Assembly: GCA_963802675.1 (NCBI GenBank)
Contig: CAWDJL010000003.1
Span: 265,158 to 329,157 of the forward strand
Direction of reading: 5' to 3'
Length of the DNA: 64,000 bases
DNA from: an uncultured Acidobacteriota bacterium
GTDB taxonomy: Bacteria; Acidobacteriota; Vicinamibacteria; Vicinamibacterales; UBA2999
In this document: positions 1,264 to 61,191 of the stretch, one piece after another
Position numbering within the stretch: position 1 is the first letter of the stretch
Layout: the number at the start of each line of letters is the position of its first letter
Notes under the pieces: generated by a model
The model's database searches: none
What the model was told of the DNA's origin: nothing
The model's input: only the letters and a program-made list of their open reading frames with translations
Position numbers and translations under genes: made by a program

Positions 1264-2609
1264 ATGTCATCAGCAACAGAAATGCCGCCTGCGGCCCATT
1301 ACACCGAGTTCCCGATCGCGCCCAGGACGCTCGAGGAGTCCGGGCTCAGCCTCGACCTCATCCTCCAGCTCGCCCTCAAGACGCTGCACTTTGCCGGCGA
1401 GCTGACGGGCGCCGAGCTGTCGCAGCGTCTCGGCCTGAACTTCGCCGTCATCGAGCCGGTGCTGGAGCTGCTGATCCAACAGCGCCAGGTGGAGATTGCC
1501 GGCGGGACGATGGTGGGCCGGGCGTCGTACCGGTATCGCATCTCGGATGCGGGGCGTGCGCGGGCGGTGTTCTTCCTCGAATCGAATCACTATGTCGGGA
1601 TTGCGCCGGTGCCGTTCGACCAGTACCGCCGCTACATGCTGGGCGTGCGCAAGATCGCTGTCGCGACGCGACGCGACCCGGGAGAAGGTCCGCGAGGCGT
1701 TTCAGCACCTGGTGATCAGCCAGCACGTGCTCGATCAGCTCGGGCCCGCCATCAACGCCGGCCACTCGATGTTCGTCTACGGCCCTCCGGGTAACGGCAA
1801 AACCGTCATCGCGCAGGCCATTCGAAAGCTGCTCGAAGGCGAGCTCGCGATTCCTCACGCCATCGAAGTCGAGGGCGCGATCATTCGCCTGTACGATCCG
1901 GTCAGCCACGAGCCGCTCGACGTGGACGAAGAGCCTGAGGCGGATCAGAGCCTCGACCTCGGCCAGCGGCCCGACCGGCGCTGGATTCGCTGCAAGCGGC
2001 CGATGGTCATGGTCGGCGGCGAGTTGACGCTCGACGCGCTCGAGCTCAACTACAACCCGAGCACCAAGTTCTACCGCGCCCCGGTGCAGGCGATCGCCAA
2101 CGGCGGCGTGCTCGTCATCGACGACTTCGGGCGTCAGCAGTGCGCGCCGCGCGACTTGCTGAACCGCTGGATCGTGCCGCTCGAAAGCCGCGTCGACTTT
2201 CTCACGCTTGCAGTCGGGGCAGAAGTTCGAGCTGCCGTTCATGGTGCTGGTCGTGTTCGCGACCAACATCAAGCCGGCCGAGCTCGTGGACGAAGCGTTT
2301 TTGCGCCGCATTCACTACAAGGTGTTTGCCGAGAGCCCGACGGTGGCGGAGTTTACCCAGATCTTCGAAAACGTGTGCCGGGAGCGGAAACTCGATTTCG
2401 ACAAGAAGTTCGTCGAGCACCTGCTCCAGAGCTATTACAAGCCGCGGAAGATTGCGCTGCGCGGGTGTCAGCCGCGCGACCTGCTGACGCAGGTGCTGTC
2501 GCTGGCGGAGTATCGGGGGATGCCGCGCGCGATCACGCCGGAATTGCTCGACGCGGCATGCGCCAGCTATTTCGTGGACGAGCAGGAAAGCCCGGTTCTG
2601 TATTCGTAG
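1264..2609 (+). pseudogene. AAA-type ATPase with N-terminal winged-helix-like region; needs two +1 shifts (about 1665 and about 2207)
   Basis: Three ORF pieces join into one protein (1264 frame, 1496 frame, 2208 frame). Walker A is GPPGNGKT and Walker B is VLVIDDFGRQ. Then VDFLTL|QSGQKFELPFMVLVVFATNIKPAELVDEAFLRRIHYKVF continues in the third frame. Confidence 0.75.
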
Positions 2610-2873
2610 CGAGGCTCCGCCTCGCTACGAAACGTTGTTGGTTTTGCCCCGCTCCGCGGGGCGAGGAGCCTTGAAGGCCGTTGGAAGGGCTTGACTCAAA
2701 TGAACAGATGTCTCGGCCTTCAAGCCTCCTAAACAGTATGAACAGCGGCGTGCGCGTGAATCGCGGGGTACGACTGGCCTTAGCGGCCTTTATGGTGCTG
2801 GTGTGCCCCGACGTGTCGGCCAGCCAGGAACCGGTCACGAGTGTCAAACCGCTGACAGCAGCGTCGGCCTCCA

Positions 2874-4847
2874 ATGTCCAGGCGCCCGCGCCCGACCCGA
2901 CCGCTAGTACCCGAGGCGAAGCCAGAAAGGCCAGAAAAGAAAAACGGCAAGCACGGCGAGGCGCCCACCAAGCTGACGGCTCGAATCACCTCGCCGATGG
3001 GTCGCACCGGAGAGATCGCGACCGTCCGTATCGTCGCCCAGATCCGGCCGCTCCCTGACAGCGCGTTGTCCCCGGTTCAGTTCTTCGTGGACGGCAAGCT
3101 CCTCGCCACGGTCGAGGGTGGACCTCCGTACGCGACGGAATGGGTGGATGAGAACCCGTTCGTGCCGACCGAAATCACCGTGTCGGTCGGGGACAATCTC
3201 GGCAACACCGCCAGCGACACGATCGTTCTCAAAGGTTTCGAGGTCACCGATCTCACCGAGGTCAGTCGCGTCCTGCTCGACACCATCGTCCAGGACAAGG
3301 ACGGCAAGTTCGTTCGCAACCTCGCTCATCAGAACTTCACCGTGCTCGAGGATGGGGTGCCGCAGACGCTCGACCTCGCGGGGCAGGATCACTTGCCGGC
3401 GACGTTTGCGATGCTCGTGGACAGCAGCCAGAGCATGTCGCGTCGAATCGATTTCGTCCGCGAAGCCGCGAACCGATTGGTCGGCTACATGCGGCCGAAA
3501 GACCGGATGCTGATCGTCCCGTTCTCCAAGACGCTGCAGCCGATCACCGGTCCCACCGATGATCGCGACACGGTGCTCGATGCGATCGCGAAGATCGAGC
3601 CGCGCGGCGGAACGGCAATTCTCGACTCGCTGATCGAGCTGTCGCCGCATCTCGGCGGCCTCGAGGGCCGTCGCGCGATTGTCCTGATCACCGATGGCTA
3701 CGACGAGCACAGCGCCAGCAAGTTCGAGGATGCGCTCGCCGCGGTCAAGGATGTCGGCGCGACGGTCTACGTCGTCGGCATCGGCGGCGTCGCGGGGATT
3801 TCGCTCCAGGGCGAGCGCTTCTTCAGGCGCCTGGCGAAGGAAACCGGCGGTCGTGCGTTTTTGCCGAGTCGCGAGACCGAGCTGCAGATCGTTCACGACG
3901 TGCTGTCGTCGGACGTGCAGAACCGGTATTTGCTGTCCTACACGCCGCAGAACCAGGCCCTCGACGGCAAATGGCGCGAGATTACCGTGATGGCGGACAA
4001 TCCGGAGTACGCCATCCGCACCCGGAACGGGTACTTCGCGCCCAAGCCGCCGCCGATACGCGCCACGCTCGAGTTCACGATTACCGATGCCGAGGATGGT
4101 TTTCCGGAAGTCTCGGCCGAGGATCTGATCGTCGTCGAGAACGGCGTCGAGCAGAAGGTGGAGTCGTTCCAGGAAGCGGTTAACCCGGTCTCGATCATCC
4201 TGGCACTCGACGCCAGCGGCAGTATGCGGAAGGCCGCGCAGGCGGCGAAGGAGGCGGCGCTTCGTTTCGTCGATTCGTTACGTCCCGAGGACAAGATCGG
4301 GCTCGCGCTCTTTGCTGACTCGGCAGAGATCGTCGAAGACCTCGGCTCGTCCCGGACAGTCATTCGCGAAGCGATCGAGAAGTACGTCTCCAACGGTGGC
4401 ACGGCGCTGTACGACGCGCTGGCCGAATCGCTGGAACGGCTCAATCGGGTCGAGGGTCGCCGCGTGATCGTGATCGTCTCGGACGGGAAAGACGAGAACA
4501 ATCCGGGCACCGGTCCTGGAAGCCGATGGACGTACGAGCAGGTGCTCGCTTCTGCACGCGAGGTGGACGCCGCCATCTTCAGCATCGGCATGGGCTCCAA
4601 CCTGGATCGAGGCGTGCTCGAGACACTGGCCGCGACGTCGGGTGGGGAAGCCTATTTCCCGCAGGACGTGACCCAACTCGACACCGAGTACGCTCGTGTC
4701 ATGGAGACGATACGGCGTCGATGGATTATTACTTACTCATCAACCGATACATCTCGTAACGGCGAGTGGCGGACGGTGGAGATCAAGACGAAGGACCCCA
4801 ATACCGTGGTCCGAAGTCGCGGCGGCTATTTCGCGCCGCGGAAGTAA
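2874..4847 (+). CDS. secreted double von Willebrand factor A domain protein (VWFA-related acidobacterial-type family, TIGR03436-like)
   Basis: 657-aa ORF with two vWA modules, each with a DxSxS MIDAS motif (VDSSQSMS, LDASGSMR) and each followed by a WREI/WRTVEI ... YFAP motif. A signal peptide (MNSGVRVNRGVRLALAAFMVLVCPDVSA|SQEP, ATG 2738) lies upstream in another frame. The true gene is probably 2738-4847 with a +1 junction near 2900. Confidence 0.8.
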   Translation: MSRRPRPTRPLVPEAKPERPEKKNGKHGEAPTKLTARITSPMGRTGEIATVRIVAQIRPLPDSALSPVQFFVDGKLLATVEGGPPYATEWVDENPFVPTEITVSVGDNLGNTASDTIVLKGFEVTDLTEVSRVLLDTIVQDKDGKFVRNLAHQNFTVLEDGVPQTLDLAGQDHLPATFAMLVDSSQSMSRRIDFVREAANRLVGYMRPKDRMLIVPFSKTLQPITGPTDDRDTVLDAIAKIEPRGGTAILDSLIELSPHLGGLEGRRAIVLITDGYDEHSASKFEDALAAVKDVGATVYVVGIGGVAGISLQGERFFRRLAKETGGRAFLPSRETELQIVHDVLSSDVQNRYLLSYTPQNQALDGKWREITVMADNPEYAIRTRNGYFAPKPPPIRATLEFTITDAEDGFPEVSAEDLIVVENGVEQKVESFQEAVNPVSIILALDASGSMRKAAQAAKEAALRFVDSLRPEDKIGLALFADSAEIVEDLGSSRTVIREAIEKYVSNGGTALYDALAESLERLNRVEGRRVIVIVSDGKDENNPGTGPGSRWTYEQVLASAREVDAAIFSIGMGSNLDRGVLETLAATSGGEAYFPQDVTQLDTEYARVMETIRRRWIITYSSTDTSRNGEWRTVEIKTKDPNTVVRSRGGYFAPRK

Positions 4848-4853
4848 GCAACG

Positions 4854-5024
4854 ATGAATACCTCGGGGAAACCGCGCGAAGGGTGGATGACCGTGATACC
4901 GGTGTCGGTCTTCATCTTTTTCGTCGTTATTGCACTAGGAGGGCCAGACAACTTCTTTCGCACCATCGCCCTGTGGGGCGAGGACGTCATCAAGACGGTC
5001 GGCACCTGGATCAAGCACTTGTAA
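4854..5024 (+). CDS. small membrane protein (56 aa), hypothetical
   Basis: ATG 4854 to TAA 5022-5024. MNTSGKPREGWMTVIPVSVFIFFVVIALGGPDNFF... contains one TM helix. It fills the gap between the vWA and TonB_C genes. Confidence 0.35.
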   Translation: MNTSGKPREGWMTVIPVSVFIFFVVIALGGPDNFFRTIALWGEDVIKTVGTWIKHL

Positions 5025-5045
5025 CGGGCGCGAAAAGGCGATGCT

Positions 5046-6296
5046 ATGGGCGAGACGCTAACCCTCTCTGAGATCATCCACCGACGGGTCACCATCGAGT
5101 GGACCGAGGGTATTGCCGTCGTCCGCGGCGTGATCGAGCAATTGCTGGCCTCGCCGCGACAGGCCTCGAAGATACCGGAGCTTCACCAGGTACGCCTGAC
5201 CCGGTATGGAAGTGTCGAGATCGACGGCGGTTATTCGAGCGACGAACCCGTTCGACGCCTCGGGCAATTTCTGCAGGCGACGCTCGGCAATTCGGCGCCA
5301 CCGGTGCAGTTGCGGCTGGTCATTTCGCGCGCTACCGCACCCACGCCGGATTTCCGGACAATCCTCGAGTTCGACACGGCCTTGGAGTACTACGAGCGCC
5401 CCGATCGAGCCGGGTTGATCAAGACGCTGTTCGAACGCACCCAGGCGGCCCCGGCGGCGGCCACGCCTGGCGTGAACGCGACGCTGGACGCGCTGGCGCC
5501 GCTCCCATCGGTGGCGGAGAAGAAGGTCACGGCGGCCGTCCGCCGCAAGATCAATCCGCGAATCTTTCGCGTTGCGGCCGCCGCCTTGATTCTCGGCGTC
5601 GCGGCGGCCGTGGGATTGAGATATGCCCTGGCTGCTGGCGCCGTCGAAGTGGACTCGGGAGTGCCGCAGGCGGCTGCCGAAGTGGCGGTCAAGGCTTCCG
5701 AAACGGTGGGAGATGCGGTCGTGAAAGGAATCTCGGCGGTCACTGAACGGGTGGGGCTGGGCCGACTGGTGTCCCCGGATGCCGCGCCGTCACCGCCGCC
5801 CGGGTCGGTTCCGCCGCCACCCGACCCCACCAAGGCCGCACCTGCAGTCAGACGACCTGTCGCGCCGTTGAAGACGGCTGCGACGGTCGCTCAAGTTTTC
5901 GACCTCGAGCCACTGCCCATCGTCGAGAGCGCGGGTCCTAGTGCGACGGCATCATCATCCGCCGGTCAGCGAGGCAGCAGTTCGAACGGCTCGCTGGCTG
6001 GCGTCGATCCGCTCGCCGTGTATACCTCCGCGTCGGCTGATGTGATGCCGCCGGTGAGCCTGAACCTGCCGTTGACGCGGGAATTGCCGCCCCATCTTCG
6101 ACGGGAGGATCTCACGCGGATCGAGTTGCTGATTGCCATGGACGGCACCGTGGAGTGGGTGAGGTTGGTCGGACAGCCGCAGACCGTGCACGACACGATG
6201 TGGCTGAGCGCGGTCAAGGCGTGGCAGTTCCAGCCGGCGTTGAGAAACGGCATCCCTGTCCGGTATCGAAAGACGATCTGGATTGCGCCACGATAG
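5046..6296 (+). CDS. TonB C-terminal domain protein with cytoplasmic N-domain, single TM and Pro-rich spacer
   Basis: TM helix IFRVAAAALILGVAAAVGL. Pro-rich spacer SPPPGSVPPPPDPTKAAP. The C-terminus IELLIAMDGTVEWVRLVGQPQ...AVKAWQFQPALRNGIPVRYRKTIWI is typical of TonB_C. Confidence 0.7.
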   Translation: MGETLTLSEIIHRRVTIEWTEGIAVVRGVIEQLLASPRQASKIPELHQVRLTRYGSVEIDGGYSSDEPVRRLGQFLQATLGNSAPPVQLRLVISRATAPTPDFRTILEFDTALEYYERPDRAGLIKTLFERTQAAPAAATPGVNATLDALAPLPSVAEKKVTAAVRRKINPRIFRVAAAALILGVAAAVGLRYALAAGAVEVDSGVPQAAAEVAVKASETVGDAVVKGISAVTERVGLGRLVSPDAAPSPPPGSVPPPPDPTKAAPAVRRPVAPLKTAATVAQVFDLEPLPIVESAGPSATASSSAGQRGSSSNGSLAGVDPLAVYTSASADVMPPVSLNLPLTRELPPHLRREDLTRIELLIAMDGTVEWVRLVGQPQTVHDTMWLSAVKAWQFQPALRNGIPVRYRKTIWIAPR

Positions 6297-8593
6297 CAGC
6301 AGTTCCGAACAGACAGTCGATCTCAAGCCCGGCGGTACAATCGAGTCCAATCTCACTTTTGACTCGACCGAGCGTGTTGCTCGAGTCTCGCTGCTCGCCT
6401 CGACCGCACCTGCCTTATTTACCGCGACCATTTTCGTCAGTGCCTCGCTGCTGTTCCTGGTGCAGCCCATGTTCGCCAAGCTCACGCTGCCGCGGCTGGG
6501 CGGCAGCCCCGCGGTCTGGAACACATGCGTCCTGTTTTTCAAGCGACGCTTCTGCTGGGTTACCTCTATGCGCATTTGTCCACTCGCTGGCTCGGTATCA
6601 GACGACAGTCGGCCGTCCATGGAGCGTTGCTGCTGTTGCCTCTTCTCAGTCTGCCCATGAGTGCTGGGGAGGGACAGCCCTCGGCCTCGGAGAGTCCAGT
6701 GTGGTGGGTTCTGCGGACCATGACACTGCACGTTGGTCTGCCATTTTTCGTGGTCTCCACCACGGCGCCGTTGCTGCAGCGGTGGTTTGCGTCGCTGCCG
6801 ATTGCCTCCGCCCGCGATCCGTATTTCTTGTACGCGGCGAGCAATCTGGGCAGCATGCTCGCGCTGCTCGGTTATCCGTTCGTTCTCGAGCCGGCGATTG
6901 GGACGCGATCACAGACTGTCTGGTGGTCGGTGGGTTACGCGTTGCTGGCCGTGCTGATTGCGTGCTGTGCGTTCCTGACCCGCTCGTCGGCGAGCGATGC
7001 CCTCGCCGAGTCAGGGCAGACTGACGAGTCACGTCGAAGCGCCGACGATGTGGATGCGGCTCTCATGGCTGGTGCTGTCTTTCGTGCCATCGAGCCTGAT
7101 GCTTGGCGTCACGACGCACGTCTCCACCGACGTCGCACCCGTGCCGCTGCTGTGGGTGTTGCCACTGGCGATGTATCTCGGGACGTTCGTTTTGGCGTTC
7201 TCATCAAGGGAGTGGATCGCGCAACGGTGGCTCACCAGAGTGCTTCCCCTGCTCGTTTACTGGATGCATCCTCACGATCCTGATGAACGCGCGCTGCGTG
7301 GTGGCTGATCCCGCTCCACCTAGCACGTTCTTCGTGGCAACGTTGATGTGTCACGGTGAGTTTGGCGCGTCGACGCCCGCATCCACGCTACCTCACCGAC
7401 TTCTACATCTGGATGTCGCTGGGTGGCGTGCTGGGTGGCGTCTTCAACAGTCTGGTGGCGCCGCAGCTGTTCAACAGTGTCCTCGAGTATCCGCTGGTAC
7501 TCGCGGTCGCCGCATTGATTCGTCCGTCGCCGCAGTACCGCGGAGATGCTCGCGAATCGATCAGGCTTCCTCCTCGGCTTTCCCGGATTCGTCATCGCGT
7601 TGGTGCTTGCATTCTGGGCTTCGGGAGGGGCACCGAGCATCGGGATCGAGCCGTTGTTGTTTGCCTGTGCCAGTCTGCTGGCGATCGCCTTCATGTTCGC
7701 CAATCGCACGGCGCCGTTCGCGGTCATGGCGCTTCGGGTTCGTCGCCATGATCGTGTTGAGCGGGCCTGCTGGATCGGGTCGCGTGTTGTTCGCTGATCG
7801 CAGCTTCTTCGGCGTGCATCGCGTCCTCGAGTCAGCGGACGGGAGTTATCACCTTCTGCAGCACGGCAGCACGACGCACGGGCGTCAGGAAATGTCGGCG
7901 GTCGATGGCTGTGCGCCGACTGGCTATTACCATCCTGAGAACCCAATCGGCCAACTGTTTGCCAGGGTCAACAGGCCGTTCCAGCGGGTGGCGCTGATCG
8001 GTCTCGGTAGTGGGGGGCTGGCCTGTTACGCGACACCAGGTGCCCACTGGACCTTTTATGAAATCGATCCGCTCGTGGAGCACATTGCCCGCGATCCTCG
8101 CTATTTCACCTTCCTTCGCAACAGTCCGGGTGAGGTTGACGTGGTCCTCGGTGACGGACGCCTGATGCTTCAGCAGGCGCCGTCGGGGGTGCACGATCTG
8201 ATCATCCTGGACGCCTTCAGCTCCGATGGAATCCCGGCGCATCTCCTGACGCGGGAAGCCATGCAGCTCTATTTGTCCGCGCTGGTTCCGGATGGCGTTA
8301 TCGCCGTGCACATCTCGAATCGCTATCTTCATCTCGAGCCGCTCGTGGCCGCTTTGACAAGCGAGTTGGGTTTGTTTGCGATCGCGAACCGCGACGTGCA
8401 GATCGGCGAGGTTGCGCGTCAGAGAGGACGCCTGCCATCGCACTGGGTCCTCGCATCGAGAAATCGCCAGGCTCTCGACGAGTCTCGTGGGCTTGCCGGG
8501 TTGGCGAACGCTCGAGAGCAGCGCGAATGTTCGGCCATGGACCGACGATTACTCGAATATCCTCCAAGTTCTGACTCCGCGCTGAGGCGTTGA
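6283..8593 (+). pseudogene. fused polytopic membrane / spermidine-synthase-like (class I MTase fold) protein; about 6 frame junctions
   Basis: Pieces in all three frames join as QPMFAKLTLPRLGGSPAVWNTCVLFF|QATLLLGYLYAHL ... MCHGE|LARRRPHPRYLTDFYIWMSLGGVLGG ... RVALIGLGSGGLACY ... LIILDAFSSDGIPAHL. Junctions lie near 6541, 7030, 7255, 7362, 7555 and 7735. Confidence 0.7.
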
Positions 8594-9849
8594 GGCGTTC
8601 TATGGCTGGCAAGATCCGCGCACGGTTTCCGACTCGCTCGGACATTCGCGGTCATGCGACGGTACTGGGGATCTGCCTGGCGCTCACCTATGCACTGAAT
8701 GTCGCGACTCCGAGCTTGAAGGATCGCGCTGGACAGATCAAGGGAACCGACTTCGCCAACTTCTACGCGCTGGGATCTCTGGCTCTGACTGGCCAGCATC
8801 AGACGCTTTATGATCCCCCCGCCTTGCGTGATTATTCGGTGTCGCTCCTTCCGGAGCTCGCTGGCACCTACTACCTGCCCATCTACGGGCCCCAGGTGGC
8901 GTTGCTGTTCGCACCGTTCGCACTCCTGCCATACAGCCTTGCGTTGGGGCTCTGGATCGCGCTCACGGCCGCGATGTTCGGCGTGTGCTGCTGGTTGTTC
9001 TGGCGAGTCTGCCCGAGCCTTCGAAAGGACGCGGTGACCGTCGCCCTCGTTGCCGCAGCTTCGCCTGCCTTCTTCAATCTCGTGGCTCACGGCCAGAACT
9101 CGGCCCTCGCGCTGCTGTGTTTTACCGGCAATGTTCTTCGCCCTCCAGCATGAACGGCATTTTGTCGCGGGGCTGGCGCTCGGTTCGCTCATCTTCAAGC
9201 CGCAACTGGGCCTCGTGGCCGGATGCGTCTTTATCTTGAGCCGGGAGTGGCGGGTGGTTGGGGCGCGTTGGCAGGCGCGGCGATTCAACTGGGGCTCCCG
9301 TGGCTGTATTTCGGGAACGAGGTCATGGTGGCATACGCCGGCTGGCTGCAGGGTGTGGGTGAGATCAACGCGCTGTTATCGGTCAAGCTCCATCAGATGC
9401 ATTCACTCTACGCGTTGTTCAAGTTGGCGATGCCTTCGTTGTGGATCGCAACGCTCCTCTATGCCCTGCGCTGCCGCGATCTGCGTCGGGGCCGCTTGCC
9501 TTGTCTGGCGAGGTCCGCGCCGCTGCCGCTTCGCTATTCCTTCCTGCTGATGGCGACCGTGCTGGCGAGCCCTCATCTCTATGTCTATGACCTGGTCATT
9601 CTCGCTCCAGCATTCCTGATCATTGTCGACCATACGCTTGCTGGAGCCGAACGGATGTTCTCGAAGCCGATTCAACGAATGCTGTATTTTGCGTACGCGC
9701 TTCCGCTGGCAGGCGTGATCGCCCAGGTGACCCACGTGCAGCTCTCCGTGATCGCCATGACGGCACTCGCGATCATGCTGTTTCGTGCGATCAGGCCCCA
9801 GTTGTCGAGCGGAACCAATTTGGTCGGCGTGCCGCAGCCGATGCTATGA
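8590..9849 (+). pseudogene. GT87/DUF2029-like polytopic glycosyltransferase; 2-4 frame junctions
   Basis: N-terminus KGTDFANFYALGSLALTGQHQTLYDP plus many TM helices. The protein continues across frames (9050 and 9223 ORFs): FKPQLGLVAGCVFIL ... HLYVYDLVILAPAFLII. The start overlaps the upstream stop. Confidence 0.6.
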
Positions 9850-10559: not shown

Positions 10560-10570
10560 GAGCAGCACCC

Positions 10571-11647: not shown

Positions 11648-11834
11648 AGCTGGTATCGCGCGGAATTTGGCGCGCTCGACTATCCAACGACGATGCGCAT
11701 CGTCGTTCCAGGTGCGACGCTGATTACGTTGGGCACATCGGCGATACTCAACAGTTTCCTCTGCAGCATGTTGGGGCTGGATCGCCGTTCCGCCGAATAG
11801 GACACCTGACACGCGCGCCCGATAAAGAGCGCAT

Positions 11835-19166: not shown

Positions 19167-19193
19167 GTCGTGGTCGTTTCGGGCAGAGCACGA

Positions 19194-20255: not shown

Positions 20256-20426
20256 GGAGCCGTGTGTGAGCGGTAGGCTCTAGGAAGAGCTGAAGGCTGA
20301 CGTCTCAGGCGCCGATCCCCTGTGGTGCTGGCTCTGGCTGCAAGACCTCCACTTCGTCAACTCTCGAGCCCAATGGACTCTCATGAGCGACAAAACCACG
20401 GCAGATTAGACGGCAGCGTTCATCCG

Positions 20427-52700: not shown

Positions 52701-52894
52701 GCCACGGCGATCGATCGACCGCCGCGATTGGGCCCGATGTTGCGCCACCGATAGGCGCTGAGCAACGCCTCGTCCAGCGGAGGTGTCTGCGCGTCGAGGG
52801 TCGATAGCGCGGTCGGGTGTGAGCCCAGACCTGCGAGCGCGAGCACCGCTATGGTGCACGCCGCGAGAAGATGGCGTCTGATGTTGGGAATCAT
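49739..52894 (-). CDS. BNR/Asp-box repeat, sortilin (VPS10)-like glycosyl-hydrolase-like secreted protein
   Basis: Start at ATG 52894 behind GGAGG. Signal MIPNIRRHLLAACTIAVLALAGL. Many Asp-box-like units (SxDxGxTW: SSDAGKTW, STDGGKTW, STDGGDTW, SDDAGATW, STDAGKTI, TNGGDTW, TRDHGKTW, TRDYGNTW). 1051 aa, intact. Confidence 0.8.
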   Translation of the reverse strand: MIPNIRRHLLAACTIAVLALAGLGSHPTALSTLDAQTPPLDEALLSAYRWRNIGPNRGGRSIAVAGVKGRPRDAYFGAVGGGLWKTVDAGNSWVPVTDGQISSSSVGAVAVSESNPDIVYIGMGESCIRGNIMPGDGVYKSSDAGKTWAKVGFANVDAISRVRIHPTNPDIVYVAAFGQYHGPSDERGVFKSTDGGKTWRQTLFRDPRTGAVDLAIDENNPNVIFAALWEAYRIEYQMSSGGPGSGLYKSTDGGDTWTEITRNQGLPQGVVGRIGVALTKADSNRVYALVENEKGGLYVSDDAGATWRLMNESRNVRQRAFYYTHVHGDPRNKDTVYMLNTALFRSTDAGKTIAQVGQGTHGDHHDLWVDPDDSDHIVVGNDGGGAVSYNISSAQRTWSDQDFPTAQWYHVVTTAHLPFHVCGAQQDNSTLCVPSNTNAGGGGFGGAPPAAPYPVGGGEPGYIAPDRTDPDVFFAGSNNGTFLTRYNLRTGELKEVGAYPRFFSGEPSKDVKERWQWTYPIIFSPVDPKVLYTSSQRVWRTTNGGDTWEAISGDLSRHDPKTFQESGGPITHDMNSPEIYGTVFSLAPGKKDINVLWAGSDDGLIHVTRDHGKTWTNVTPADMPEFGRVSQIDGSSFDNGTAYLAVKKMLLGDRSPHIFRTRDYGNTWMKIVNGIAADDYVHTVREDPARRGLLYAGTQHGVYISFDDGERWQPLKNGLPDTPVTDLVVEKNALAIGTHGRSFYVMDDIAALRQLGVAQAGEVVLLKPADVIRGLDRAGISYYLKTQPKTLTIEFLDAKGQVMRTVNGQPPPKPGDKPAPAPGGGGGGGFGGPQGAPMAAGMNRYSWDLNSTPVVSFPGMILWGATQNGPMVLPGSYSVRLTMDGATQTQSFSIAKHPLRPISDADLQYQWDLASRIRDKVNEANLAVINIRRIKSDIAARTKDAPKEVQEAGAKLAQSLSVVEEDVYQVRNQSGQDPLNFPIKTNNRLASLLRVAVTGEGRPTGNVETIFAELVAELKGHTDRLDRTLATELAAFNRMLERNKKEAIRPK

Positions 52895-53868
52895 CGGGCC
52901 TCCGTGCAACGAAGCAGCGAGTCTAGCAAATAGAGGTACCGGTTCTTGTGCTCTACCGCGAATGGCGTAATGCCGACGCGGCCCACTCGGCTTGCACCGC
53001 CCGCTTCGCGCCGTGGTAAACGGCCTCTCCGCGGTCGTCCTGTCGCCCCGCCCGGCGCTTCGGGCCCCTCGAACGCCTGTGAACAATCGCTTGGGTGACC
53101 GGGTTGTTCGTGCAGTCGTGGCGAATCACCAGCGCCGGCCGACTCCGCTGCCAGGCCGTTTACCTGCACGCTGATCACGGCGCTCAGAGTGCGCTGCCAT
53201 CCGAGTGGTCCGCATCGGCTGCGCATTCCGCGCGCGCCGGTGCTTCACGGATGGGCCAATGTGAGCTTCCGCCTGCTCCGCGATAGCCCATCACCAAGCG
53301 TGAGTGACCGAAACGGGTGGTTCGAGTCGCGCGGACCTCTGAGCGGCGTGCGCGCGATCCGGAAAGGGCCGCGCCGCGATCGCGCGGCGACGGCCCCGAT
53401 TCGCCACAATGGATCGGTTCACCCGTACATCCAAACGATTCGGGTACAGCGGGCGGATCACCACTGCCGTCGCCGGCGTCGATAGTCGTCCAGCGGCGCG
53501 GCTCCTTTCCCACGCCGCGAAGCGGGGCCCCCGCCGCGCGTTTTGTGCGCGGTGGGGTGAGAAGCGGGACGTGCGACCCGAACCGCCCGTTTCGGCAACT
53601 ATCGCCACCTCACACCCTCAATCGGATCTCATCCAGCGGCTTCTTTGTGATTGTCGGCACCTCCGCATCAGCCGCCGGAGGCCCACCGCGCGCAGCGCGG
53701 CCCGCCCACGTAGTGGCCTTCCGCCCGAGAGCGGCCTATACTGGTGTCGCGCGAGGGGCGCATCCAGTCCGCGGAAAGGGCCGTGCCCACCCACAGTCGT
53801 TCGACCACACGAACCTTCTTTCAAGCCTGACAGTGCGGACTCCAGGCGTGTGATGAAAGGAGATTCGT

Positions 53869-55195
53869 ATGTATCCCAATCCGCAAGACGCGCTCCCTCT
53901 TCCGTCACGCCCCAACGGTCGAGCAGTACAAGAAACTCGCCAAAGAGCTGGTGAAGGCGTGCAAGTCGAATGATGCGACTGCCCTTCGCAGCTGGGCCAC
54001 ACAGTGGATTCATGCGCTGGCGGCGTTGCACAAGGAACCGGGCGCGTTACGGGACGAACGTGAGGTTACGGCGCGGGCCGACCAGGTCGAGCGGTTTGCC
54101 CGAAAGAAGCTGACCGGGGGTGCGGGCTCGAGATGCGCACTGACCGATGCGCAGTTCGTAATTGCCCGTGCTCACGGCTTCCCGAGTTGGCCGATCTTCG
54201 TGGAGCACATCGACTCGCTGGCACGCGCCAGTTCGCCGACCTCCACCTTCGAAGCCGCCGCCCACGCCATCGTCTCGGGCGACATCTCGACGGTCGGGCG
54301 TCTGCTGCAAGAGCAGCCGGAATTGATCCGGGCGCGGTCCACACGCGAGCACAGGGCCACGCTCCTGCATTACGTTTCGGCCAACGGGGTTGAGAACTAC
54401 CGTCAGGTGTCGCCAAAGAACATCGCGGAGATCACCGAGCGGTTGCTCGCGGCCGGCGCCGAGGTCGACGCCGAGGCAAACGTCTATGGAGGCGGCTGCA
54501 CGACGCTCGGTCTCGTCGCCACGAGCGCACCGCCATTCATCGCCGGCGTGCAGCAGGACGTCATGGACGTGTTGCTCGAGCATGGCGCGAGCCTGGATCG
54601 CATTGGAGCCGCCGGCAACCGGCAGTCACTGGTTCGCGGCTGCCTGGCGAATGGCCAGCCCGCAGCGGCCGCGTACCTTGCGAGCCGCGGCGCTCCGGTC
54701 GACCTCCCGGACGCGGCGGGCCTGGGGCGTCTCGACCTCGTGAAGGAGCTAATCGATCAGGATGGTGGGCTCGCGGAAGATCGGACGATCGCGAGAATGA
54801 AGGATTCCTTCTCGTTGGCCTGTGCGTACGGTCGATCGGAGGTCATCGATTTTCTTCTCAACCGCGGTTTCGACGTGGACGAGGAGCTCAAGGGCCATGG
54901 ACAAGGGCACACCGGTCTTCATGTCGCCGCGTACCATGGACATGTCGACGCCGTTCGGACGCTGCTGCGCCACGGCGCACGCGTCGATGTGATCGACAAG
55001 ACCTGGGGCACGCCGCCGCTCGTCTGGGCGCTGACCGGTTGGAGCGGCAGGCCCACGACCGAGGCGCGCTACTACGACGTCGTGGCTCAGCTCGTGGCAG
55101 CGGGCGCGACGGTGAAGCCTGAACTGCTCGAATGGGACAGGGTGCGTGAGGATCCGAGAATGCACGCGGCACTCGGGATCGACGCTACGCAGTAA
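53869..55195 (+). pseudogene. ankyrin-repeat protein; one +1 junction near 53917
   Basis: AAGGAG then ATG 53869 gives MYPNPQDALPLPSRPN, then the next frame gives VEQYKKLAKELVKACKSND and the 414-aa ORF. ANK repeats e.g. GHTGLHVAAYHGHVDAVRTLLRHGARVDV. Confidence 0.7.
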
Positions 55196-55255: not shown

Positions 55256-56649
55256 TCACTGGGCCCCAACGTCGTAATACAAAGGAGCGTCGGGCACGTC
55301 TCCCTGGATGAGCCGCTCGCCTTCGAGCTCAGGGTGCGCGTCGTAACGCTCCACGGTCAATCGATACACCTGGCCCTCGGGGCGACGTGATTCCTTCAGC
55401 ACCCGCGAATCGCGTATCCCCCAGTGGGCCACGTTGATCTGCGTGCCGGGTTGGTTGCCTTCGACCACATTGACGATCTCATAAGTGCTGACAACCAGCG
55501 CATGGCGGTAGGGCGCGATCGACTCGGGCGTGGGGACCTGGCCCGCCGATACCAGACGCGCGTCGACCACCATTCGCGCCATCGACTTGCTGTCGCCCGT
55601 CGCGGCGGGACCCAAGCGACCGCTGGCATGCTGCGGATGTGTACCTTGCTCGCGGTCGATCCACACGTCCGGATAGGCGTCGCCGCCGGCATTGCTCGTA
55701 ACACGCGCCCACGCTTCGATCTCCGTGAAGTCGTCGCGAAATCGCCCCAGCCAGATCTCGGCCTGCTTGCCGCCACTGCGGACCTGGTTTGCGCCGCCCT
55801 GGTCGTATGGTCCGGACATGACCATGAACCGCGGATGCCGCGCCCACCGCGGGTGATAGACCTCCGGGTTGGCGAAGCCGGGCGCGCGGTTGATCGGCAC
55901 GGTCCAGCGACGATCGCGGTTGAGGTCGACCATTCGTAGGTTGCGATGCGCACCGTCGAAATACCACAACAGCGGGGCGCCCACGTCGTTCAGCGCCGTC
56001 CAGCAGCCTTCACCGATCTGCCGCCACGACCCGGTCGTGAGGTCGGCCACGCCCGCCGCCGGCCAAGGAAACAGACCGCCGGCGATCGATCCGTCAGGCG
56101 AGACCTGGAAGGTGTCGAACGACACCACGCCACCGATTCCAGACCAGCTCTCGTCGCGAGGGTTCGTCGAGACGAACCCGTGTCACCGTGCCGACGCCGA
56201 ACTCGCGGATCTCTGATCCGAGGTACGACCCACTCGCCACCGTCGCGCGGATCCTCCCAGACGCCGAGCGCGATGCCGCGGTCGAAGCGGCGCTGGCCAT
56301 TGCCATCGAAGCCCACGACGAACACGGAGGGATCGCCAAGCTCTGGGTGCGTCGAATACACCACGCGATCGCCGCGTGGGGTCAACAGCGGCTTCACATA
56401 GCTCCCCTTCTCAGCCAGGATCGCGCGCTCCCCGCGCCCATCGTCGCTATCGAATCCCATCAACGTCAGCTGATTGCCCATCGCGTAGGGATCGCTGCCG
56501 TCACCCTGGACCCAGACGACGCGTGTGTGCGCGCTGGTGAGGCCATGCACCTCAGCGGCGGCGCCCTCGCGTGGCGGCGCCGAACGGCAGGAGGCCAATG
56601 TCGGAAGAAAGACGCACAGCGCGAGTAAGGAGAAGAGCTTTGAGACCAC
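55256..56649 (-). pseudogene. lipoprotein, beta-propeller-like, hypothetical; two +1 junctions (about 56225 and 56135)
   Basis: Lipobox LPTLASC. LLTPRGDRVVYST ... GGEWV|YLGSEIREFGVGTVTRVRL ... |VSFDTFQVSPDGSIAGGLFPWPAAG ... 290-aa tail. No family recognised. Confidence 0.5.
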
Positions 56650-56744
56650 GTGAGTCGATCGTAATACGAGTCGGCGAGGACGCGGTCGCAGCGGCAGGCG
56701 CTTACGGTCGCGGTTCGGAACGGCGTTTGCTTTCGGCCGATGAC

Positions 56745-57008
56745 ATGGGCATCACACGCCAAGCGGTGCAATACGGGCAGCGCCGGATCATGCGCAAGTT
56801 GCTCCGTTCGGTACCATTTCTTGGTGGATTGGTCGCCGTTGCAACGGTGACCCGAGCGGTTCGCCGGAAGGGTCTGTTCGGTGGAACGCTCGATACCGCG
56901 CTCGACGTCATCCCGTTCGTGAGTGGCGCCAAAAACGTTCTGGAGATCGTCCGCGGCCGCGACTTCATCGCTGACCGACAGCGCCCAGCGCGCCAAACTT
57001 CCGCCTGA
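56745..57008 (+). CDS. small hypothetical protein with one TM helix (weak call)
   Basis: MGITRQAVQYGQRRIMRKLLRSVPFLGGLVAVATV... Third-position GC is lower than in neighbouring genes. Its stop codon is the loop of a CTTCCGCC-TGAA-GGCGGAAG hairpin. Confidence 0.25.
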   Translation: MGITRQAVQYGQRRIMRKLLRSVPFLGGLVAVATVTRAVRRKGLFGGTLDTALDVIPFVSGAKNVLEIVRGRDFIADRQRPARQTSA

Positions 57009-57068
57009 AGGCGGAAGCCACGCGATATTCTTTAGGTATTCGTGGCTTCCGGCTTTAGCCGGAAGATT
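56998..57068. repeat. GGAAGCCACG-family hairpin pair, locus 2
   Basis: CTTCCGCCTGAAGGCGGAAGCCACG ... CGTGGCTTCCGGCTTTAGCCGGAAG. Confidence 0.75.
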
Positions 57069-57125
57069 GAACCGCGATACCGATCCAGCTGATACACGGC
57101 GAGCGTCTTCGCACGGACAGCTCGC

Positions 57126-58430
57126 TCACGTGACCGCCGCGCGAACGCTGAACTGCGGTTGGCGCCACTCACCACGTTGAAGGACGTGCGCGAGGCGATC
57201 AACGGCATCCCACACGTCCGCGAAGCGGGTGTACAACGGCGCGAAGCCGAACCGCAGGATGTCGGGCGCTCGAAAGTCGCCGATCACGCCACGTGCGATG
57301 AGCGCTTGCATGATGGCGTAACCATCACTCGGATGCGCGAGGCTGACCTGGCTGCCGCGGGCGTTGCTTTCGCGCGGCGTCACGACTGAAAGGCCGTCTC
57401 CGGCGCAGCGCGATTCCACCAGGTCGATGAACAGCCCCGTCAGGCGTAGCGATTTTTCGCGGAGCGCGGACAGTCCCCCGCACGTTTCCGCGGCCAGCAC
57501 GACGTCAACGCCGCATTCCAGGGCCGCAAGCGACAGAATCGGTGGGGTGCCGCAAACGAACCGCGCGATGCCTGGCGCGGGGTGATAGTCGGTTGAAAAG
57601 TCGAACGGTGCGGCATGCCCCAGCCAGCCTGAGAGCGGCTGCCGCCATCCGTCACGGTCCATGCGCTCCGTGAGCCGGGGGTGGACCCACAGGAATGCGG
57701 GCGCGCCCGGACCGCCGTTGAGATATCTGTACCCGCAGCCAACAGCGAAGTCAGCCGCGTCCTCGTCCGCTCCCCGACCACGCAGATTGACCGGAACCGC
57801 ACCGACGGAGTGCGAGAGATCCCAGACCATCAAGGCGCCGACCCTATGGGCCGCGCGCGTGATCGCCCTGAGATCATTCATACGGCCGGTGCGATAGTTC
57901 ACGTGCGTCAGCATCACGACGGCCGCCGTCTCGTCGATCTGCGTGAGCAGGTCATCACTGTCGATGAGACGCAGTGAAAAACCCCGCTCGCGGGCAAGGG
58001 TATCTGCGATGTAGAGATCGCTCGGAAAGTTGGTGCGCTCCGAAACAATGCAGCGCCGTGTTGGCTCGTCTGCCTTTACGAGCGCCACGGCTGCGCTCAG
58101 CACCTTGTATAGGTTGGCCGAGGTCGAGTCGGCGACCACCACCTCGCCAGGGCCGGCGCCGACCAGCCGCGCAATCTTGTCGCCAACACGATGCGCGAGC
58201 GTGATCCAGCCCGCGGTGTTCCAGCTGCGAATCAGCCCGCGACCCCACTCGTCGGAGGCAACCTGCGCGAGCCGCGCTGGTGTGACTCGGGGCAGCGGAC
58301 CGAGCGAGTTGCCATCGAGGTAGACAAGGCCGGACGCATCGGCTTGGTCAAGAGCAAAGTGGTCGCGCAACGACCTGAGTGGATCGGCCCCATCGAGCGC
58401 CAGGCAGTCCTCGCGTGTGATCATGCGCAA
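57126..58430 (-). CDS. kynU: kynureninase
   Basis: Intact 434-aa ORF. VYLDGNSLGPLP ... SWNTAGWITL ... VVADSTSANLYKVL ... VWDLSHSVGAVPVNL ... YRYLNGGPGAPAFLWV is the kynureninase PLP-enzyme pattern. Confidence 0.85.
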   Translation of the reverse strand: MRMITREDCLALDGADPLRSLRDHFALDQADASGLVYLDGNSLGPLPRVTPARLAQVASDEWGRGLIRSWNTAGWITLAHRVGDKIARLVGAGPGEVVVADSTSANLYKVLSAAVALVKADEPTRRCIVSERTNFPSDLYIADTLARERGFSLRLIDSDDLLTQIDETAAVVMLTHVNYRTGRMNDLRAITRAAHRVGALMVWDLSHSVGAVPVNLRGRGADEDAADFAVGCGYRYLNGGPGAPAFLWVHPRLTERMDRDGWRQPLSGWLGHAAPFDFSTDYHPAPGIARFVCGTPPILSLAALECGVDVVLAAETCGGLSALREKSLRLTGLFIDLVESRCAGDGLSVVTPRESNARGSQVSLAHPSDGYAIMQALIARGVIGDFRAPDILRFGFAPLYTRFADVWDAVDRLAHVLQRGEWRQPQFSVRAAVT

Positions 58431-58546
58431 CCGCTTCGTGACGATACCTCACAACGCCTCCCCTCGGCCTTGACCCTCCCGACTCGCTTCGAGGGGCGCT
58501 GAAGCCTGTAGACCGCGAGCCGTTCTCGTTCTATCCTCTGGCAGCC

Positions 58547-61191
58547 GTGATCGGCAGCACGCTGCTTCACTACCGAATCCTTCATACGCTTGGCGCAGGA
58601 GGAATGGGGGAGGTGTATGCCGCAGAAGATACCCGGCTCAATCGCCGCATCGCTATTAAGCTGCTGCCACCCGATACGGCAGCAGACCCGGAACGCCTCG
58701 AACGCTTCCGCCGCGAAGCGCAAGCCGTCGCCGCCCTGAATCATCCAAACGTCGTCACGATCTATTCGGTCGAGGAGGCGAACGGATTTCACTTCCTGAC
58801 GATGGAGATCGTCGAGGGGAAGACGCTGGTCGATTACATCAGGGCTGGCGGCGTGGCGTGGTCAGACTTTTACAAGTGGACGATTCCGCTGGTTGATGCC
58901 ATCAGCGCGGCGCATCAACGTGGCGTCATTCACCGCGACATCAAGCCCGCGAACATCATGATTGGCAGCGTCGGGCGTTTGAAAGTCCTCGACTTTGGCA
59001 TCGCGAAGTTGAAGCACTCCGGCACGGAGAGGGGTGCGGGGCTGGAGACGACGGCTCGTATGACAGCGCCGCAGGCGGTATTTGGCACAACGGCCTACAT
59101 GTCGCCGGAGCAGGCAGAGGGGAAGCTTGTTGATGCGCGCTCGGGCATTGCTCTGGCGTCGTGTTGGACGAAATGGTGGCCGGCGCCCGCCCCTTCACGG
59201 GTGACACGAGCATGTCTCTCCGTCTTCGATCATCAAGGATCTGGCTGTCGCTGACCGGGGTGCGTTCTGATGCGCCGGCAGACCTCGATTGAATCCTGCG
59301 ACGGTGTCTGGCCAAAGATACTGACCGTCGTTACCAGACGGCGATCGATCTGCGCAACGACCTCGAGGACTTGCAGCAGCAGCGCTTCGCCTCGCAGACC
59401 GCCGCCGAGAACGCGATATCAATCGTTACGGGTCGGCGTCGACACTGGTTGGTCGGTGTGGCGCTGATGGGGGCAATGGCGGGCATCGCTGCGTTCCTGA
59501 TCTGGCGGCAACCGGCGCCGCCCGCGCCGTCGAGCACCTTGCGGGCGACATTCAGTCAACTGACGCACAACCCCGGCATTGAGTGGTTTCCCAGCCTCTC
59601 TCAGACGGGCGCTGGGTGGTGTACGCGGCGATGGCGCCGGGAATCGAGACATTTACCTTCAGAGCGTGAGTGGTCAGACACCGATCAATCTGACAAGAGA
59701 TTCAACCGACGACGACGATCAGCCGGCGTTCTCGCCGGATGGCGAGCGAATTGCGTTTCGATCGACGCGCGAAGGCGGCGGCTTGTTCGTGATGGATGCA
59801 ATGGCGAAGCGGTCCGACGACTCACCAAGATCGGGTTCAACCCAGCGTGGTCCCGAGACGGAAAGCAGATCGCTTTCACGACGATTCTTAATGAGCTCAG
59901 GCCGCAGAACACGGAAGGCGTAAGTGAGCTGTGGGTTGTTGGCGTTGATGGTGGCGAGCCCCGGCGGCTGTAATAATCGGACGTCGGTTTGCCCAATTGG
60001 TCTCCCCGCGGTCAGCGCATTGCATTTGGCGTTCGCCGCGGTGGCGCACGTGCGTCGGATGGACATTGTGACGATTCCAGTTGAGGGCGGGGCTGAGCAG
60101 GCGGTGACCCTTGACGCCCATCTCGACTGGAACCCCGTGTGGGCGCCAGACGGTCGTCACTTGTACTTTGTGAGCGATTGCGGCGGCAGCACGAATATCT
60201 GGCGCGTGCCGATGGACGAAGCGTCAGGCCAGACGCTTGGAGATCCCGAGCCAATCACATCACCGGCACCGTTCGCCACACATTTGACGATCTGGGCTGA
60301 GGGAACCCGATCGCGTACAGCTCGGTACGAGACACAAGACATCCAGAAGATGGAGTCGACCCGGCGACGGGTGACCCGGTGTCGCAGCCATTGGCGGTGA
60401 CGACCGGATTACGGTTCTGGGCCAACCCGTACCTGTCCCCCGATGGTCAGGCCGTGGTGGCCGACTGGAAGTCAATCCGGAAGGCGATCATACATCGTCA
60501 GGACAGATGGTTCGGGTGCGCTTCGTCAACTGACGTCGGATCCCGCGATCGATCGCGTCCCGCGCTGGTCACCCGATGGCGCCTGGATTGCCGCGTTCTC
60601 CGATCGGATGGGTCACTGCAGATCTGGAAGATTCGGACCGGACGGTAGCGATCTCCGAGCAGATGACGAACGTCAAGGGTAGCGGCGTCGTGGCCTGGTC
60701 ACCCGATAGCCGCACGACTCGCGGTGACATTGTCACGCCGCATTGGCGCAGACGCGCCCGAGGGCGGGAGCGCTATGAAATCGACGTCCGAGCGGCCGAT
60801 GACGGACCAGGTCGATCGATCGTCTGCCATCAGAATCCAGCACGGATCGACGATTTGTGCCGAATGCATGGTCGCTCAGACGGCCGTGGATCACAGGGCA
60901 GTCCTGGTACGACGTTCCGGGCGTCTCGTTTACTCAGTGCAGGCGACGGACGTATGAACGGCTGTCCACCGTTGGCGAATGGCCGTGTGGTTGGCGGACA
61001 GCCGTCGTGTGCTGTACGTCTCGCGTGGGCGCGAGTTTCACGTCCTCGATACGCAGACCCGCACCACGAAGCAGATCTTTTCGGTCCTCCGCGACACGCT
61101 CGGCCCGCCGCGTGTTACACGCGACGGGCGGCACATATTCTTTTCACGCCGCATCACCGAATCGGACGTGTGGATGGTCAATCTCCAATAA
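58547..61191 (+). pseudogene. Ser/Thr protein kinase fused to TM helix and TolB-like WD40 beta-propeller; at least 10 frame junctions plus an in-frame TGA
   Basis: Kinase core GAGGMGEVY...AIKLL...HRDIKPANIM...VLDFGIAK...TTAYMSPEQ. Then GVVLDEMVAGARPFTG, PADLD[TGA 59290-59292]ILRRCLAKDTDRRYQTAIDL, TM HWLVGVALMGAMAGIAAFLIW. Propeller pieces are scattered over all frames (FSPDGERIAFRS, NPAWSRDGKQIAFTT, WAPDGRHLYFVSD, PRWSPDGAWIA, VAWSPDSR). Ends FFSRRITESDVWMVNLQ*. Confidence 0.7.

Follow-up and report, generated by a model that had tools for sequence, protein, structure and literature searches.

The frame junctions scattered through the window (the whole 64-kb stretch of DNA analysed here) are very probably errors in the deposited consensus sequence, and sequence comparison points to a technical cause rather than to gene decay or recoding. 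In total, 50 frame junctions were placed in about 20 genes that are otherwise well conserved, together with two in-frame TGA codons, giving an indel to nonsense ratio of 50:2 across the window. An earlier note on this DNA had claimed at least 24 loci; about 20 were validated, and the junctions themselves turned out to be more numerous than it had supposed (50, the kinase gene included). A noisy read set would have yielded a consensus in which single bases were wrongly added and, less often, lost, with the errors gathered in patches of poor coverage, poor polishing or difficult alignment; the genes themselves would work normally in this Vicinamibacterales-like soil acidobacterium, where they are probably intact and the lesions without biological importance. 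Among the three explanations offered by the note (consensus errors, an unusual mutational process and recoding), the first is supported, and the orthologue, selection and motif evidence disfavours the other two. The practical meaning lies in the quality of the data: roughly one third of the window genes are open to mis-annotation as pseudogenes or split ORFs, and pseudogene counts, pangenome or selection analyses built on this assembly would be distorted.

Number, direction and spread of the junctions

Candidate junctions were obtained with a codon-usage HMM (Viterbi pass) and stitched translations, and were tested against orthologous DNA, by frameshift-aware alignment to homologous proteins that are intact, against Pfam domains spanning the junctions, and by three-frame inspection. 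Outside the kinase gene, 34 lesions were found, 29 of them +1 (a surplus base) and 5 of them −1 (binomial p=3.9e-5), which bears out the +1 bias claimed earlier as 34:6. The kinase gene, credited before with "at least 10" lesions, contains 16 (6 +1 and 10 −1) and one in-frame TGA, and it differs in direction from the rest (Fisher p=0.002); the surplus-base bias, proposed as one-directional, holds outside the kinase gene and fails in the kinase patch.

The uneven spread of the lesions is statistically significant, with a variance/mean of the lesion counts of 4.0 in 1–2 kb bins (p<1e-12) and still of 2.9 with the kinase left out (p=6e-7); spacings shorter than 60 nt were observed 10 times versus 2.25 expected. 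The island at 6.3–27.4 kb, described earlier as carrying about one lesion per kb, contains 27 lesions, or about 1.3 per kb. Some candidates were discarded. The HMM frame changes at 6288, 8575, 9846, 10557, 24974 and 48981 are ordinary gene boundaries, the HMM segments 7032–7220, 13726–13841, 19186–19289 and 56650–57128 are artefacts of the simple codon model, and 1243–1269 (TPR/AAA) and 41049–41130 (GT1/GDE) were kept as gene boundaries, though fused genes occur in some relatives. The junction reported near 53917 was not confirmed, and the gene may simply begin at GTG 53951.

Homopolymer extension does not account for most insertions: 5 of the 12 nucleotide-resolved ones duplicate the neighbouring base, near the rough chance estimate of about 47%. 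In nanopore drafts, gene-fragmenting indels are deletion-biased and located mainly in homopolymers (PMC12007338), and more than 70% of the PacBio consensus errors in the ARAMIS study lie in homopolymers, mostly as G/C deletions in most organisms tested, including high-GC bacteria (PMC8574707). Neither the homopolymer association (12 resolved insertions) nor the deletion bias (29:5 outside the kinase) of these error types was seen among the window lesions. The lesions resemble nanopore draft errors in that one-base indels split genes intact in relatives, substitutions are few and k-mer contexts may partly recur (PMC12007338), and PacBio errors in that coding regions are hit, sometimes with several indels per gene, with a non-random genome distribution (PMC8574707); however, they differ from the former in the dominance, outside the kinase gene, of insertions without a homopolymer link, and from the latter in showing an insertion-dominant pattern in place of homopolymer G/C deletions. 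Because of this difference from the patterns in both sources, homopolymer-focused polishing and QC heuristics would miss such an insertion-biased, patchy and partly context-specific profile. The atypical profile is also a counterpoint to the reading of the lesions as consensus errors, and it speaks for genuine, very recent pseudogenisation, where an indel-prone, insertion-biased burst truly damaged the genes of this strain, an alternative that is nonetheless unlikely in view of the substitution data given below.

Damaged genes and intact controls

The AAA-ATPase-like gene (1264–2609, plus strand) has two +1 lesions, at about 1639–1660 and at 2204–2213, on which at least eight homologues (P0241–P0249, 40–65% identity) concur in frameshift-aware alignment; a 1388-aa chimeric query gave 14 matches, informative for the AAA gene only. 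The fused MFS/spermidine synthase gene (6283–8585, plus strand) contains nine one-base lesions, all window-specific with respect to three orthologous contigs: −1 at 6539–6544 and 7320–7326, and +1 at 7026–7038, 7260–7264, 7295–7298, 7355–7361, 7560–7563, 7735–7741 and 8477–8483. Alignment with proteins P0001–P0005 gives the same events as the DNA comparison; the stitched protein spans 100% of the intact homologues of 700–777 aa (best 84%), and the frame-corrected protein reaches 86% to P0001. The earlier description of this gene as multiply broken is correct, and its count of about six lesions was too low. An 8-nt tandem duplication (GAGGCGTT twice, 8585–8600), located between the stop of this gene and the start of the next, is window-specific and absent from L161, L081, L162 and L163. 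The GT87-family gene that follows (8590–9849, plus strand) has +1 at 9125, −1 at 9258, +1 at 9464 and −1 at 9515, window-specific versus L081, L162 and L163; its orthologue in L081 is a single intact ORF, and the second pair (9464/9515) leaves the ORF unbroken. The methyltransferase gene (9846–10559, plus strand) has a +1 at 10518, near the C-terminus, which is a window-specific insertion relative to three orthologues. The GT2 glycosyltransferase gene (10571–11791, plus strand) has an in-frame TGA (11645–11647) and no indel, and comparison with L163 (82% aa) and with five further homologues indicates same-frame conservation for 48 codons past the TGA. Three +1 lesions, at about 12375–12378, 12729–12748 and 13040, were placed in the gene of membrane protein P (11838–13367, minus strand), from L163 DNA and protein and with its paralogue Q as a guide.

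The gene of protein Q (13325–14903, minus strand) has one +1 near 13700; the ORF 14903–13662 stops where P continues, and the C-terminal part has to be read from the next frame. A third P/Q-like membrane protein (22356–24028, plus strand) has two +1 lesions near 22940 and 23085, placed by three-frame reading against P/Q motifs; this double +1 was read by the HMM as one net −1. The GT87/PMT_2-like membrane protein (16242–17772, plus strand), which had no close homologue to compare with, contains −1 near 16835, +1 near 17211 and +1 at 17361–17395, on the basis of the codon model, a Pfam GT87 match across the first junction, three-frame reading and, for the last site, the 12-mer CAGTACCGACTG on which it lies. 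The codon model and three-frame reading, without a homologue, place a +1 near 19004 in the gene of another membrane protein (17765–19190, minus strand). Comparison of two FkbM-like paralogues places a +1 inside 21864–21878 (CATCAGTACCGACTG) in copy 1 (21633–22392, plus strand) and another inside 27030–27044 in copy 2 (26621–27224, minus strand), within a 15-mer identical in both copies; a Methylocystis FkbM-like homologue is contiguous across the copy 1 junction, and an intact HQYDCFD-coding sequence was not found in the fetched loci. In the gene of a PQQ-repeat-like secreted protein (27389–28814, plus strand), the +1 at 27491–27497 separates the signal peptide from the body, as indicated by two homologues (L060 and L046 ORFs) and three-frame reading. 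LVIVD paralog 2 (33268–35161, plus strand) has a single +1 at about 34252, found by alignment to paralog 1 (77% identity); the GT1 glycosyltransferase (40034–41078, plus strand) has a +1 at 40700–40706, supported by five homologues (P0351, P0387, P0389, P0397 and P0315); and the glycogen-debranching-like (GDE) gene (41089–43256, plus strand) has +1 lesions at 42394–42397 and 42704–42707, on which nine homologues concur, with a Pfam GDE_N_bis match. The MBL-fold hydrolase gene (48018–48990, plus strand) has a +1 near 48646, and its Pfam Lactamase_B_2 match (aa 96–282) crosses the junction at aa 209. In the gene of a secreted protein of no assigned family (55256–56649, minus strand), the codon model and three-frame reading suggest a candidate net −1 or two +1 lesions near 56177–56230.

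Some genes of the window are clean. The vWA-domain gene (2874–4847, plus strand; Pfam VWA) matches its L161 orthologue at 91% aa identity along 647 aa, free of frameshifts and stops, the gene at 5046–6296 (plus strand), which has no Pfam family or assigned function, has 80–81% aa identity to L161 and L162 over its full length with no frameshift, and LVIVD paralog 1 (30875–32818, plus strand) aligns across 855 aa with an L044 homologue (61% identity) without a frameshift. The vWA gene and LVIVD paralog 1, both listed as intact before, are therefore free of shifts and stops against homologues, and kynureninase, from the same list, reads through as an open frame and matches Pfam KYNU_C and Aminotran_5. 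The fourth gene of that list, BNR, was not confirmed as intact: it is an open ORF of 1115 aa with Pfam matches, and comparison with a single 44%-identical homologue indicates possible shifts near 53152, 52926 and 50413.

Orthologues and selective constraint

The window at 2.9–13 kb is covered by three orthologous short-read contigs, independent of one another and each from a different sample; being only 72–82% identical to it at the nucleotide level, they show that a lesion is lineage-specific, and not that the strain's actual DNA lacks it. Each of the 16 window-specific 1-nt indels at 6.5–12.8 kb was compared with one to three mutually agreeing contigs, and these concur in length at 16/16; as would be expected of technical errors, none of the 16 is present in the independent orthologous sequence. 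No frame-breaking indels were found among the orthologous contigs themselves in the same interval. Over the aligned 10 kb, the window departs from the contigs in length in just two further ways, by in-frame 3-nt differences and by the intergenic 8-nt duplication. For every other gene tested there are intact homologues, the orthologues proposed earlier as a check are intact at each testable site, and the frame-corrected tested genes (MFS/SpdS, kinase, GDE, GT1, LVIVD paralog 2, P and AAA) can be aligned with intact homologues from one end to the other.

The damaged genes appear to be under normal constraint. The window-specific codon changes, synonymous to non-synonymous, number 16:3 in the MFS/spermidine synthase gene, 17:3 in the GT87 gene and 5:1 in the methyltransferase gene, similar to or below those on the orthologues' own branches, and window-unique substitutions at ortholog-invariant sites amount to 0.021 and 0.054 in damaged genes versus 0.059 in a clean neighbour. 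Relaxed selection (dN/dS towards 1 or loss of conserved residues) was not seen in the tested damaged genes or the kinase. Indels unaccompanied by substitutions or relaxed constraint are what technical errors would leave, and, since the substitutions are mostly synonymous and show no excess over clean neighbours, no neutral decay seems to have run beside the nine indels of one gene. The compensated pairs 7295/7323 and 9464/9515, 28–51 nt apart, break no ORF, which shows a process blind to the reading frame.

Genuine pseudogenisation would also account for lineage-specific lesions and for the two in-frame TGA codons, and pseudogenes of reductive evolution resemble the window genes in having several frameshifts per gene and lineage-specific lesions. 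In real pseudogenes, nonsense mutations are about as numerous as frameshifts and selection is relaxed, and bacterial substitutions are roughly tenfold commoner than indels. Neutral decay yielding 9 or 16 indels should also bring many random substitutions, but the gene with nine indels has just the three non-synonymous window-specific changes and no substitution excess. A mixed spectrum of nonsense codons, multi-base or 3n deletions and truncations was not found among the 50 one-base indels and two TGA codons, and the window thus shows neither comparable nonsense numbers nor relaxed selection. Indels in real bacterial pseudogenes are spread in size, with deletions biased towards multiples of 3 nt (PMC6054270), whereas the 16 ortholog-checked lesions are all exactly 1 nt long. 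The conserved residues kept in the kinase and the identical 12-mers at three sites, unexpected under random mutation, argue against pseudogenisation as well.

The kinase gene and the sequence contexts

The gene of the Ser/Thr kinase with a TolB-like propeller (58547–61191, plus strand) has its 16 lesions within 59150–60986, and 16 intact homologues (P0121–P0136, 61–64% identity) concur on them. The −1 lesions are at 59150, 59221, 59602, 59625, 59798, about 60311–60356, 60463, 60489, 60608 and 60986, the +1 lesions at 59247, about 60050, 60637, 60656, 60708 and 60811, and the in-frame TGA, a CGA-to-TGA-type stop, at 59290. The frame-corrected protein has 67.5% to P0121 over 896 aa. The kinase patch, with its other direction ratio and nonsense codon, may have a separate cause. 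Its membership of a large paralogous family and its deletion bias, reported for natural decay (PMC2817411, PMC6054270), fit pseudogenisation; the direction ratio (6:10 versus 29:5), the stop and the density of 8.7 lesions per kb fit a mixed origin, where most lesions of the window are technical and the kinase is a truly decaying paralogue. The search for a kinase orthologue gave nothing above 64% identity, in contrast to the neighbouring genes, which agrees with the latter possibility. A genome-collection scan gave relatives of at most 49% identity among the matches listed. A mixed origin is nevertheless very unlikely, given that, of the 261 highly conserved residues in the damaged part, 241 are still present (92%), with most misses adjoining junctions, that the kinase lesions are all 1-nt events, that the lesion-free first 600 nt resemble a patch boundary and not gene-wide decay, and that the kinase context CCGACTG recurs at a +1 site elsewhere.

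The 12-mer CAGTACCGACTG lies at +1 junctions in all three of its window occurrences, namely in the two FkbM-like paralogues on opposite strands and in the unrelated GT87/PMT_2-like gene. CCGACTG is found at junctions in 5/16 occurrences and TGGTTG in 5/24; the family-wise p of k-mer recurrence is 0.015 for k=6, 0.085 for k=7 and 0.31 for k=5, and most sites share nothing. A first k-mer scan around the sites gave nothing significant, and the scans of the window sites revealed no motif common to most junctions, so the shared motif sought since the earlier note is limited to a minority of sites with identical contexts. The recurring contexts suggest partly systematic error and not recoding.

Recoding, that is, expression with the junctions bridged by transcriptional slippage or programmed ribosomal frameshifting, would agree with the strong +1 bias outside the kinase and with the confinement of the 12-mer to +1 junctions, paralogues on opposite strands included, but it is hardly credible. 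In known programmed +1 frameshifting (of the prfB type, and pervasive in Euplotes), the shift site is conserved and kept in orthologues, and a gene usually has just one. The window sites are similar in that one surplus base must be skipped for a full protein, but they are heterogeneous, with −1 events interspersed, and at each testable site the orthologues and homologues keep the frame, with no conserved shift site. The lack of a motif common to most sites and the occurrence of both shift directions within single genes, with up to 9–16 shifts each, disfavour recoding. Long A/T runs, needed for rescue by slippage, were absent from the junction contexts listed, UAC-C is not known to permit +1 re-pairing of tRNA-Tyr, and the compensated pairs would be senseless as signals. 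It is highly improbable that the surplus bases are real, either as a sequence-directed +1 event (e.g., CAGTAC-C-GACTG as a programmed +1 frameshift or site-specific insertion) or as a patch-confined, insertion-biased, indel-only hypermutation burst; if read-supported, they would represent either recoding or an indel-only mutational process, in a form new to science.

Other contexts were dismissed. GATC enrichment at junctions vanished against the true GATC density (497 copies), ACCG and ACTGG are family-wise non-significant as recurrent contexts at k=4–5, and a simple 7-mer rule behind the 12-mer effect does not hold, GTACGAC being present 13 times unaltered. The site read as CAGTAC-C-GACTG is common to both FkbM-like paralogues and a glycosyltransferase unrelated to them.

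Distribution of the frame junctions

Frame junctions were located by a codon-usage Viterbi pass over six frames and a non-coding state. This returned dozens of same-strand frame switches with no in-frame stops within the segments; stitching the translations over these switches gave continuous proteins. Validation drew on a purpose-written frameshift-aware protein-to-DNA aligner; for the gene with the best coverage, it agreed with the comparison of nucleotide sequences. The fused MFS/spermidine synthase gene (6283-8585) contains seven +1 junctions (one surplus base) and two -1 junctions (one missing base), as indicated by orthologous DNA and protein alignment; orthologous DNA also indicates two +1 and two -1 junctions in the GT87 gene and one +1 in the methyltransferase, and frameshift-aware alignment two +1 in the AAA-ATPase-like gene. 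The paralogous minus-strand membrane proteins P (11838-13367) and Q (13325-14903) have three and one +1 junctions, respectively, the GT87/PMT-like gene (16242-17772) one -1 and two +1, the gene at 17765-19190 one +1, and the gene at 22356-24028 two +1. A single +1 was found in each of two FkbM-like paralogues, the PQQ-like protein, LVIVD paralog 2, GT1 and the MBL-fold hydrolase, where a Pfam domain spans the junction; GDE has two. The plus-strand Ser/Thr kinase gene (58547-61191) has six +1 and ten -1 junctions and an in-frame TGA (59290-59292), with 16 intact homologues in agreement. Another in-frame TGA (11645-11647) truncates the GT2 gene. Homologues have Leu (GT2) and Arg (kinase) at these codons, conservation persists in frame downstream of both, and no other substitution-type lesions were found.

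Outside the kinase, 29 +1 junctions stand against five -1 (p=3.9e-5); the kinase ratio of 6:10 differs from the rest (Fisher p=0.002). Clustering is strong, with a variance/mean ratio of ~4 and 10 gaps shorter than 60 nt (2.25 expected). Comparison with homologues showed no lesions in the vWA gene, the 5046-6296 gene or LVIVD1. The frame junctions, +1 bias and patchiness described in the earlier note are thus borne out. The kinase and MFS/spermidine synthase genes hold more junctions than it claimed, several frame changes are ordinary gene boundaries, and its junction at 53917 needs no lesion. The BNR gene, which it regarded as intact, is an open ORF and only putatively intact: one weak homologue (44% identity) hints at lesions near 53152, 52926 and 50413.

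Comparison with orthologous contigs and the case for decay

A metagenome scan and protein search found four short-read contigs, drawn from three separate samples: L161 and L081 (JGI 3300006845), L162 (SRR29483053) and L163 (ERZ27257135), syntenic with window positions 2928-12982 at 72-82% nucleotide identity. In the joint alignment, all frame-breaking length differences are private to the window, and its private one-base changes comprise 12 insertions and four deletions. At each of these sites the orthologues (three at 14 sites, L163 alone at two) lack the change and are mutually consistent. No one-base change lies in 2928-6538, and 15 lie in 6539-10518. In two pairs, 7295/7323 and 9464/9515, the second change undoes the first after 28-51 nt and the ORF stays open; their sole effect is to scramble a short stretch of protein whose orthologous counterparts are hydrophobic and conserved.

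The order vWA, small ORF, 419-aa protein, MFS/spermidine synthase, GT87, methyltransferase, GT2, methyltransferase (window 2.9-13 kb) is kept in L161-L163, which come from soil or rhizosphere metagenomes; the 6.3-27.4 kb island, in its first part at least, is therefore a conserved cluster rather than one peculiar to the strain. A window-specific 8-nt tandem duplication (GAGGCGTT twice, 8585-8600) lies between the MFS/spermidine synthase stop and the GT87 start, within the patch where lesions are densest; it may have arisen as a further artefact of the consensus or reflect genuine intergenic change.

Old pseudogenes would be expected to show relaxed selection on the window lineage; none was found in a frame-corrected codon alignment with the orthologues. 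Among window-specific codon changes, the ratio of synonymous to non-synonymous is 16:3 in the nine-indel gene, 17:3 for GT87 and 5:1 for the methyltransferase, a balance no worse than on the orthologues' own branches. At sites invariant in three orthologues, window-unique substitutions amount to 0.021 and 0.054 per site in damaged genes and 0.059 in a clean neighbouring gene. In bacteria, substitutions are about an order of magnitude commoner than indels, so nine or 16 neutral indels in one gene, unaccompanied by many random substitutions, are not credible as ordinary decay. The lesions consist of 50 one-base indels, two nonsense codons and no multi-base frame-breaking deletions, a spectrum also unlike that described for real bacterial pseudogenes (PMC6054270). 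A real mutational burst producing only indels is considered improbable.

The kinase patch stands apart, with a higher density (8.7 lesions per kb) and a bias opposite to the rest of the window. This suggests a separate patch history; a real pseudogene is less likely, and a mixed origin, with the kinase lesions alone being real, appears more improbable than a burst. In the damaged part, 261 positions show conservation of at least 90% across 20 homologues; 241 of them are kept, and the lost positions mostly adjoin junctions, where placement is uncertain.

Recurring contexts and the probable source of the lesions

Recoding is the least probable explanation and very unlikely. Programmed frameshifting and transcriptional slippage are argued against by orthologues and homologues that are in frame at all testable sites, by the need for up to nine or 16 shifts in both directions within single genes, and by the junction sites themselves, among which neither a k-mer common to most nor long A/T tracts were found.

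A minority of sites do share exact contexts. Both FkbM-like paralogues (opposite strands, 62-72% protein identity) need a +1 within the identical 15-mer CATCAGTACCGACTG. The 12-mer CAGTACCGACTG has exactly three copies, 17361-17372, 21867-21878 and 27030-27041 (minus strand), each at a +1 junction; the copy at 17361-17372 lies outside the FkbM-like pair, in an unrelated gene. CAGTACCGACTG reads Q-Y-[C]-D-C/W and holds an inverted repeat, CAGT...ACTG. CCGACTG is at junctions in 5/16 occurrences and TGGTTG in 5/24; the permutation test gave family-wise p-values of 0.015 for 6-mers, 0.085 for 7-mers and 0.31 for 5-mers. GTACGAC occurs unaltered 13 times, so a context effect needs more than a 7-mer. 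The recurrence, the sole feature keeping a biological reading alive, is read as partly systematic, context-dependent calling error; linking such error to DNA modification is speculation.

Technical consensus indel errors are the best explanation of the frame junctions, and very probably the correct one. The window is insertion-biased and without a homopolymer link, in contrast to nanopore drafts as described in PMC12007338, which are deletion-biased and homopolymer-linked, and to PacBio consensus errors, mostly G/C homopolymer deletions in most organisms tested, high-GC bacteria included (PMC8574707). Five of 12 resolved insertions duplicate a neighbouring base, close to the ~47% that a rough estimate gives for chance. 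Candidate sources would be patches built of few noisy reads, hybrid-assembly segments that bridge gaps and escaped polishing, or strains collapsed into a single consensus that keeps both alternative alleles. The lesions are of low interest unless they are read-supported.

Gene content of the window

The window has a G+C content of ~63%, and no tRNA or Rfam families were found within it; its closest relatives among the matches listed are MAGs labelled Vicinamibacterales/Acidobacteriota. GATC occurs 497 times in the whole window (~215 expected from base composition). Its genes include vWA, BNR/sortilin-like and LVIVD-like genes, GT87-like membrane glycosyltransferases and the Ser/Thr kinase fused to a TolB-like propeller. 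Paralogue sets comprise three P/Q-like membrane proteins (11838-14903 and 22356-24028) and two FkbM-like proteins on opposite strands (21633-22392; 26621-27224) in the island, and two tandem LVIVD-like proteins (30875-35161). The genes richest in lesions are mostly members of multi-copy families, where reads could be more difficult to place or polish.

The codon model finds no coding sequence in 20256-21632, 25406-26620, 28809-29711 and 52850-53872 (0.9-1.4 kb each), stretches that could be real spacers or genes damaged past recognition. Long ORFs run through some of them, in frames that are unlikely to be used (e.g., 25482-27275, minus strand). The TPR and AAA genes (345-2609) form one fused protein in some relatives (P0241), as do GT1 and GDE (40034-43256; P0255, P0256 and P0315); in the window, a stop and a +1 shift of frame lie between the two genes of each pair, and these boundaries could be sites of further hidden lesions.
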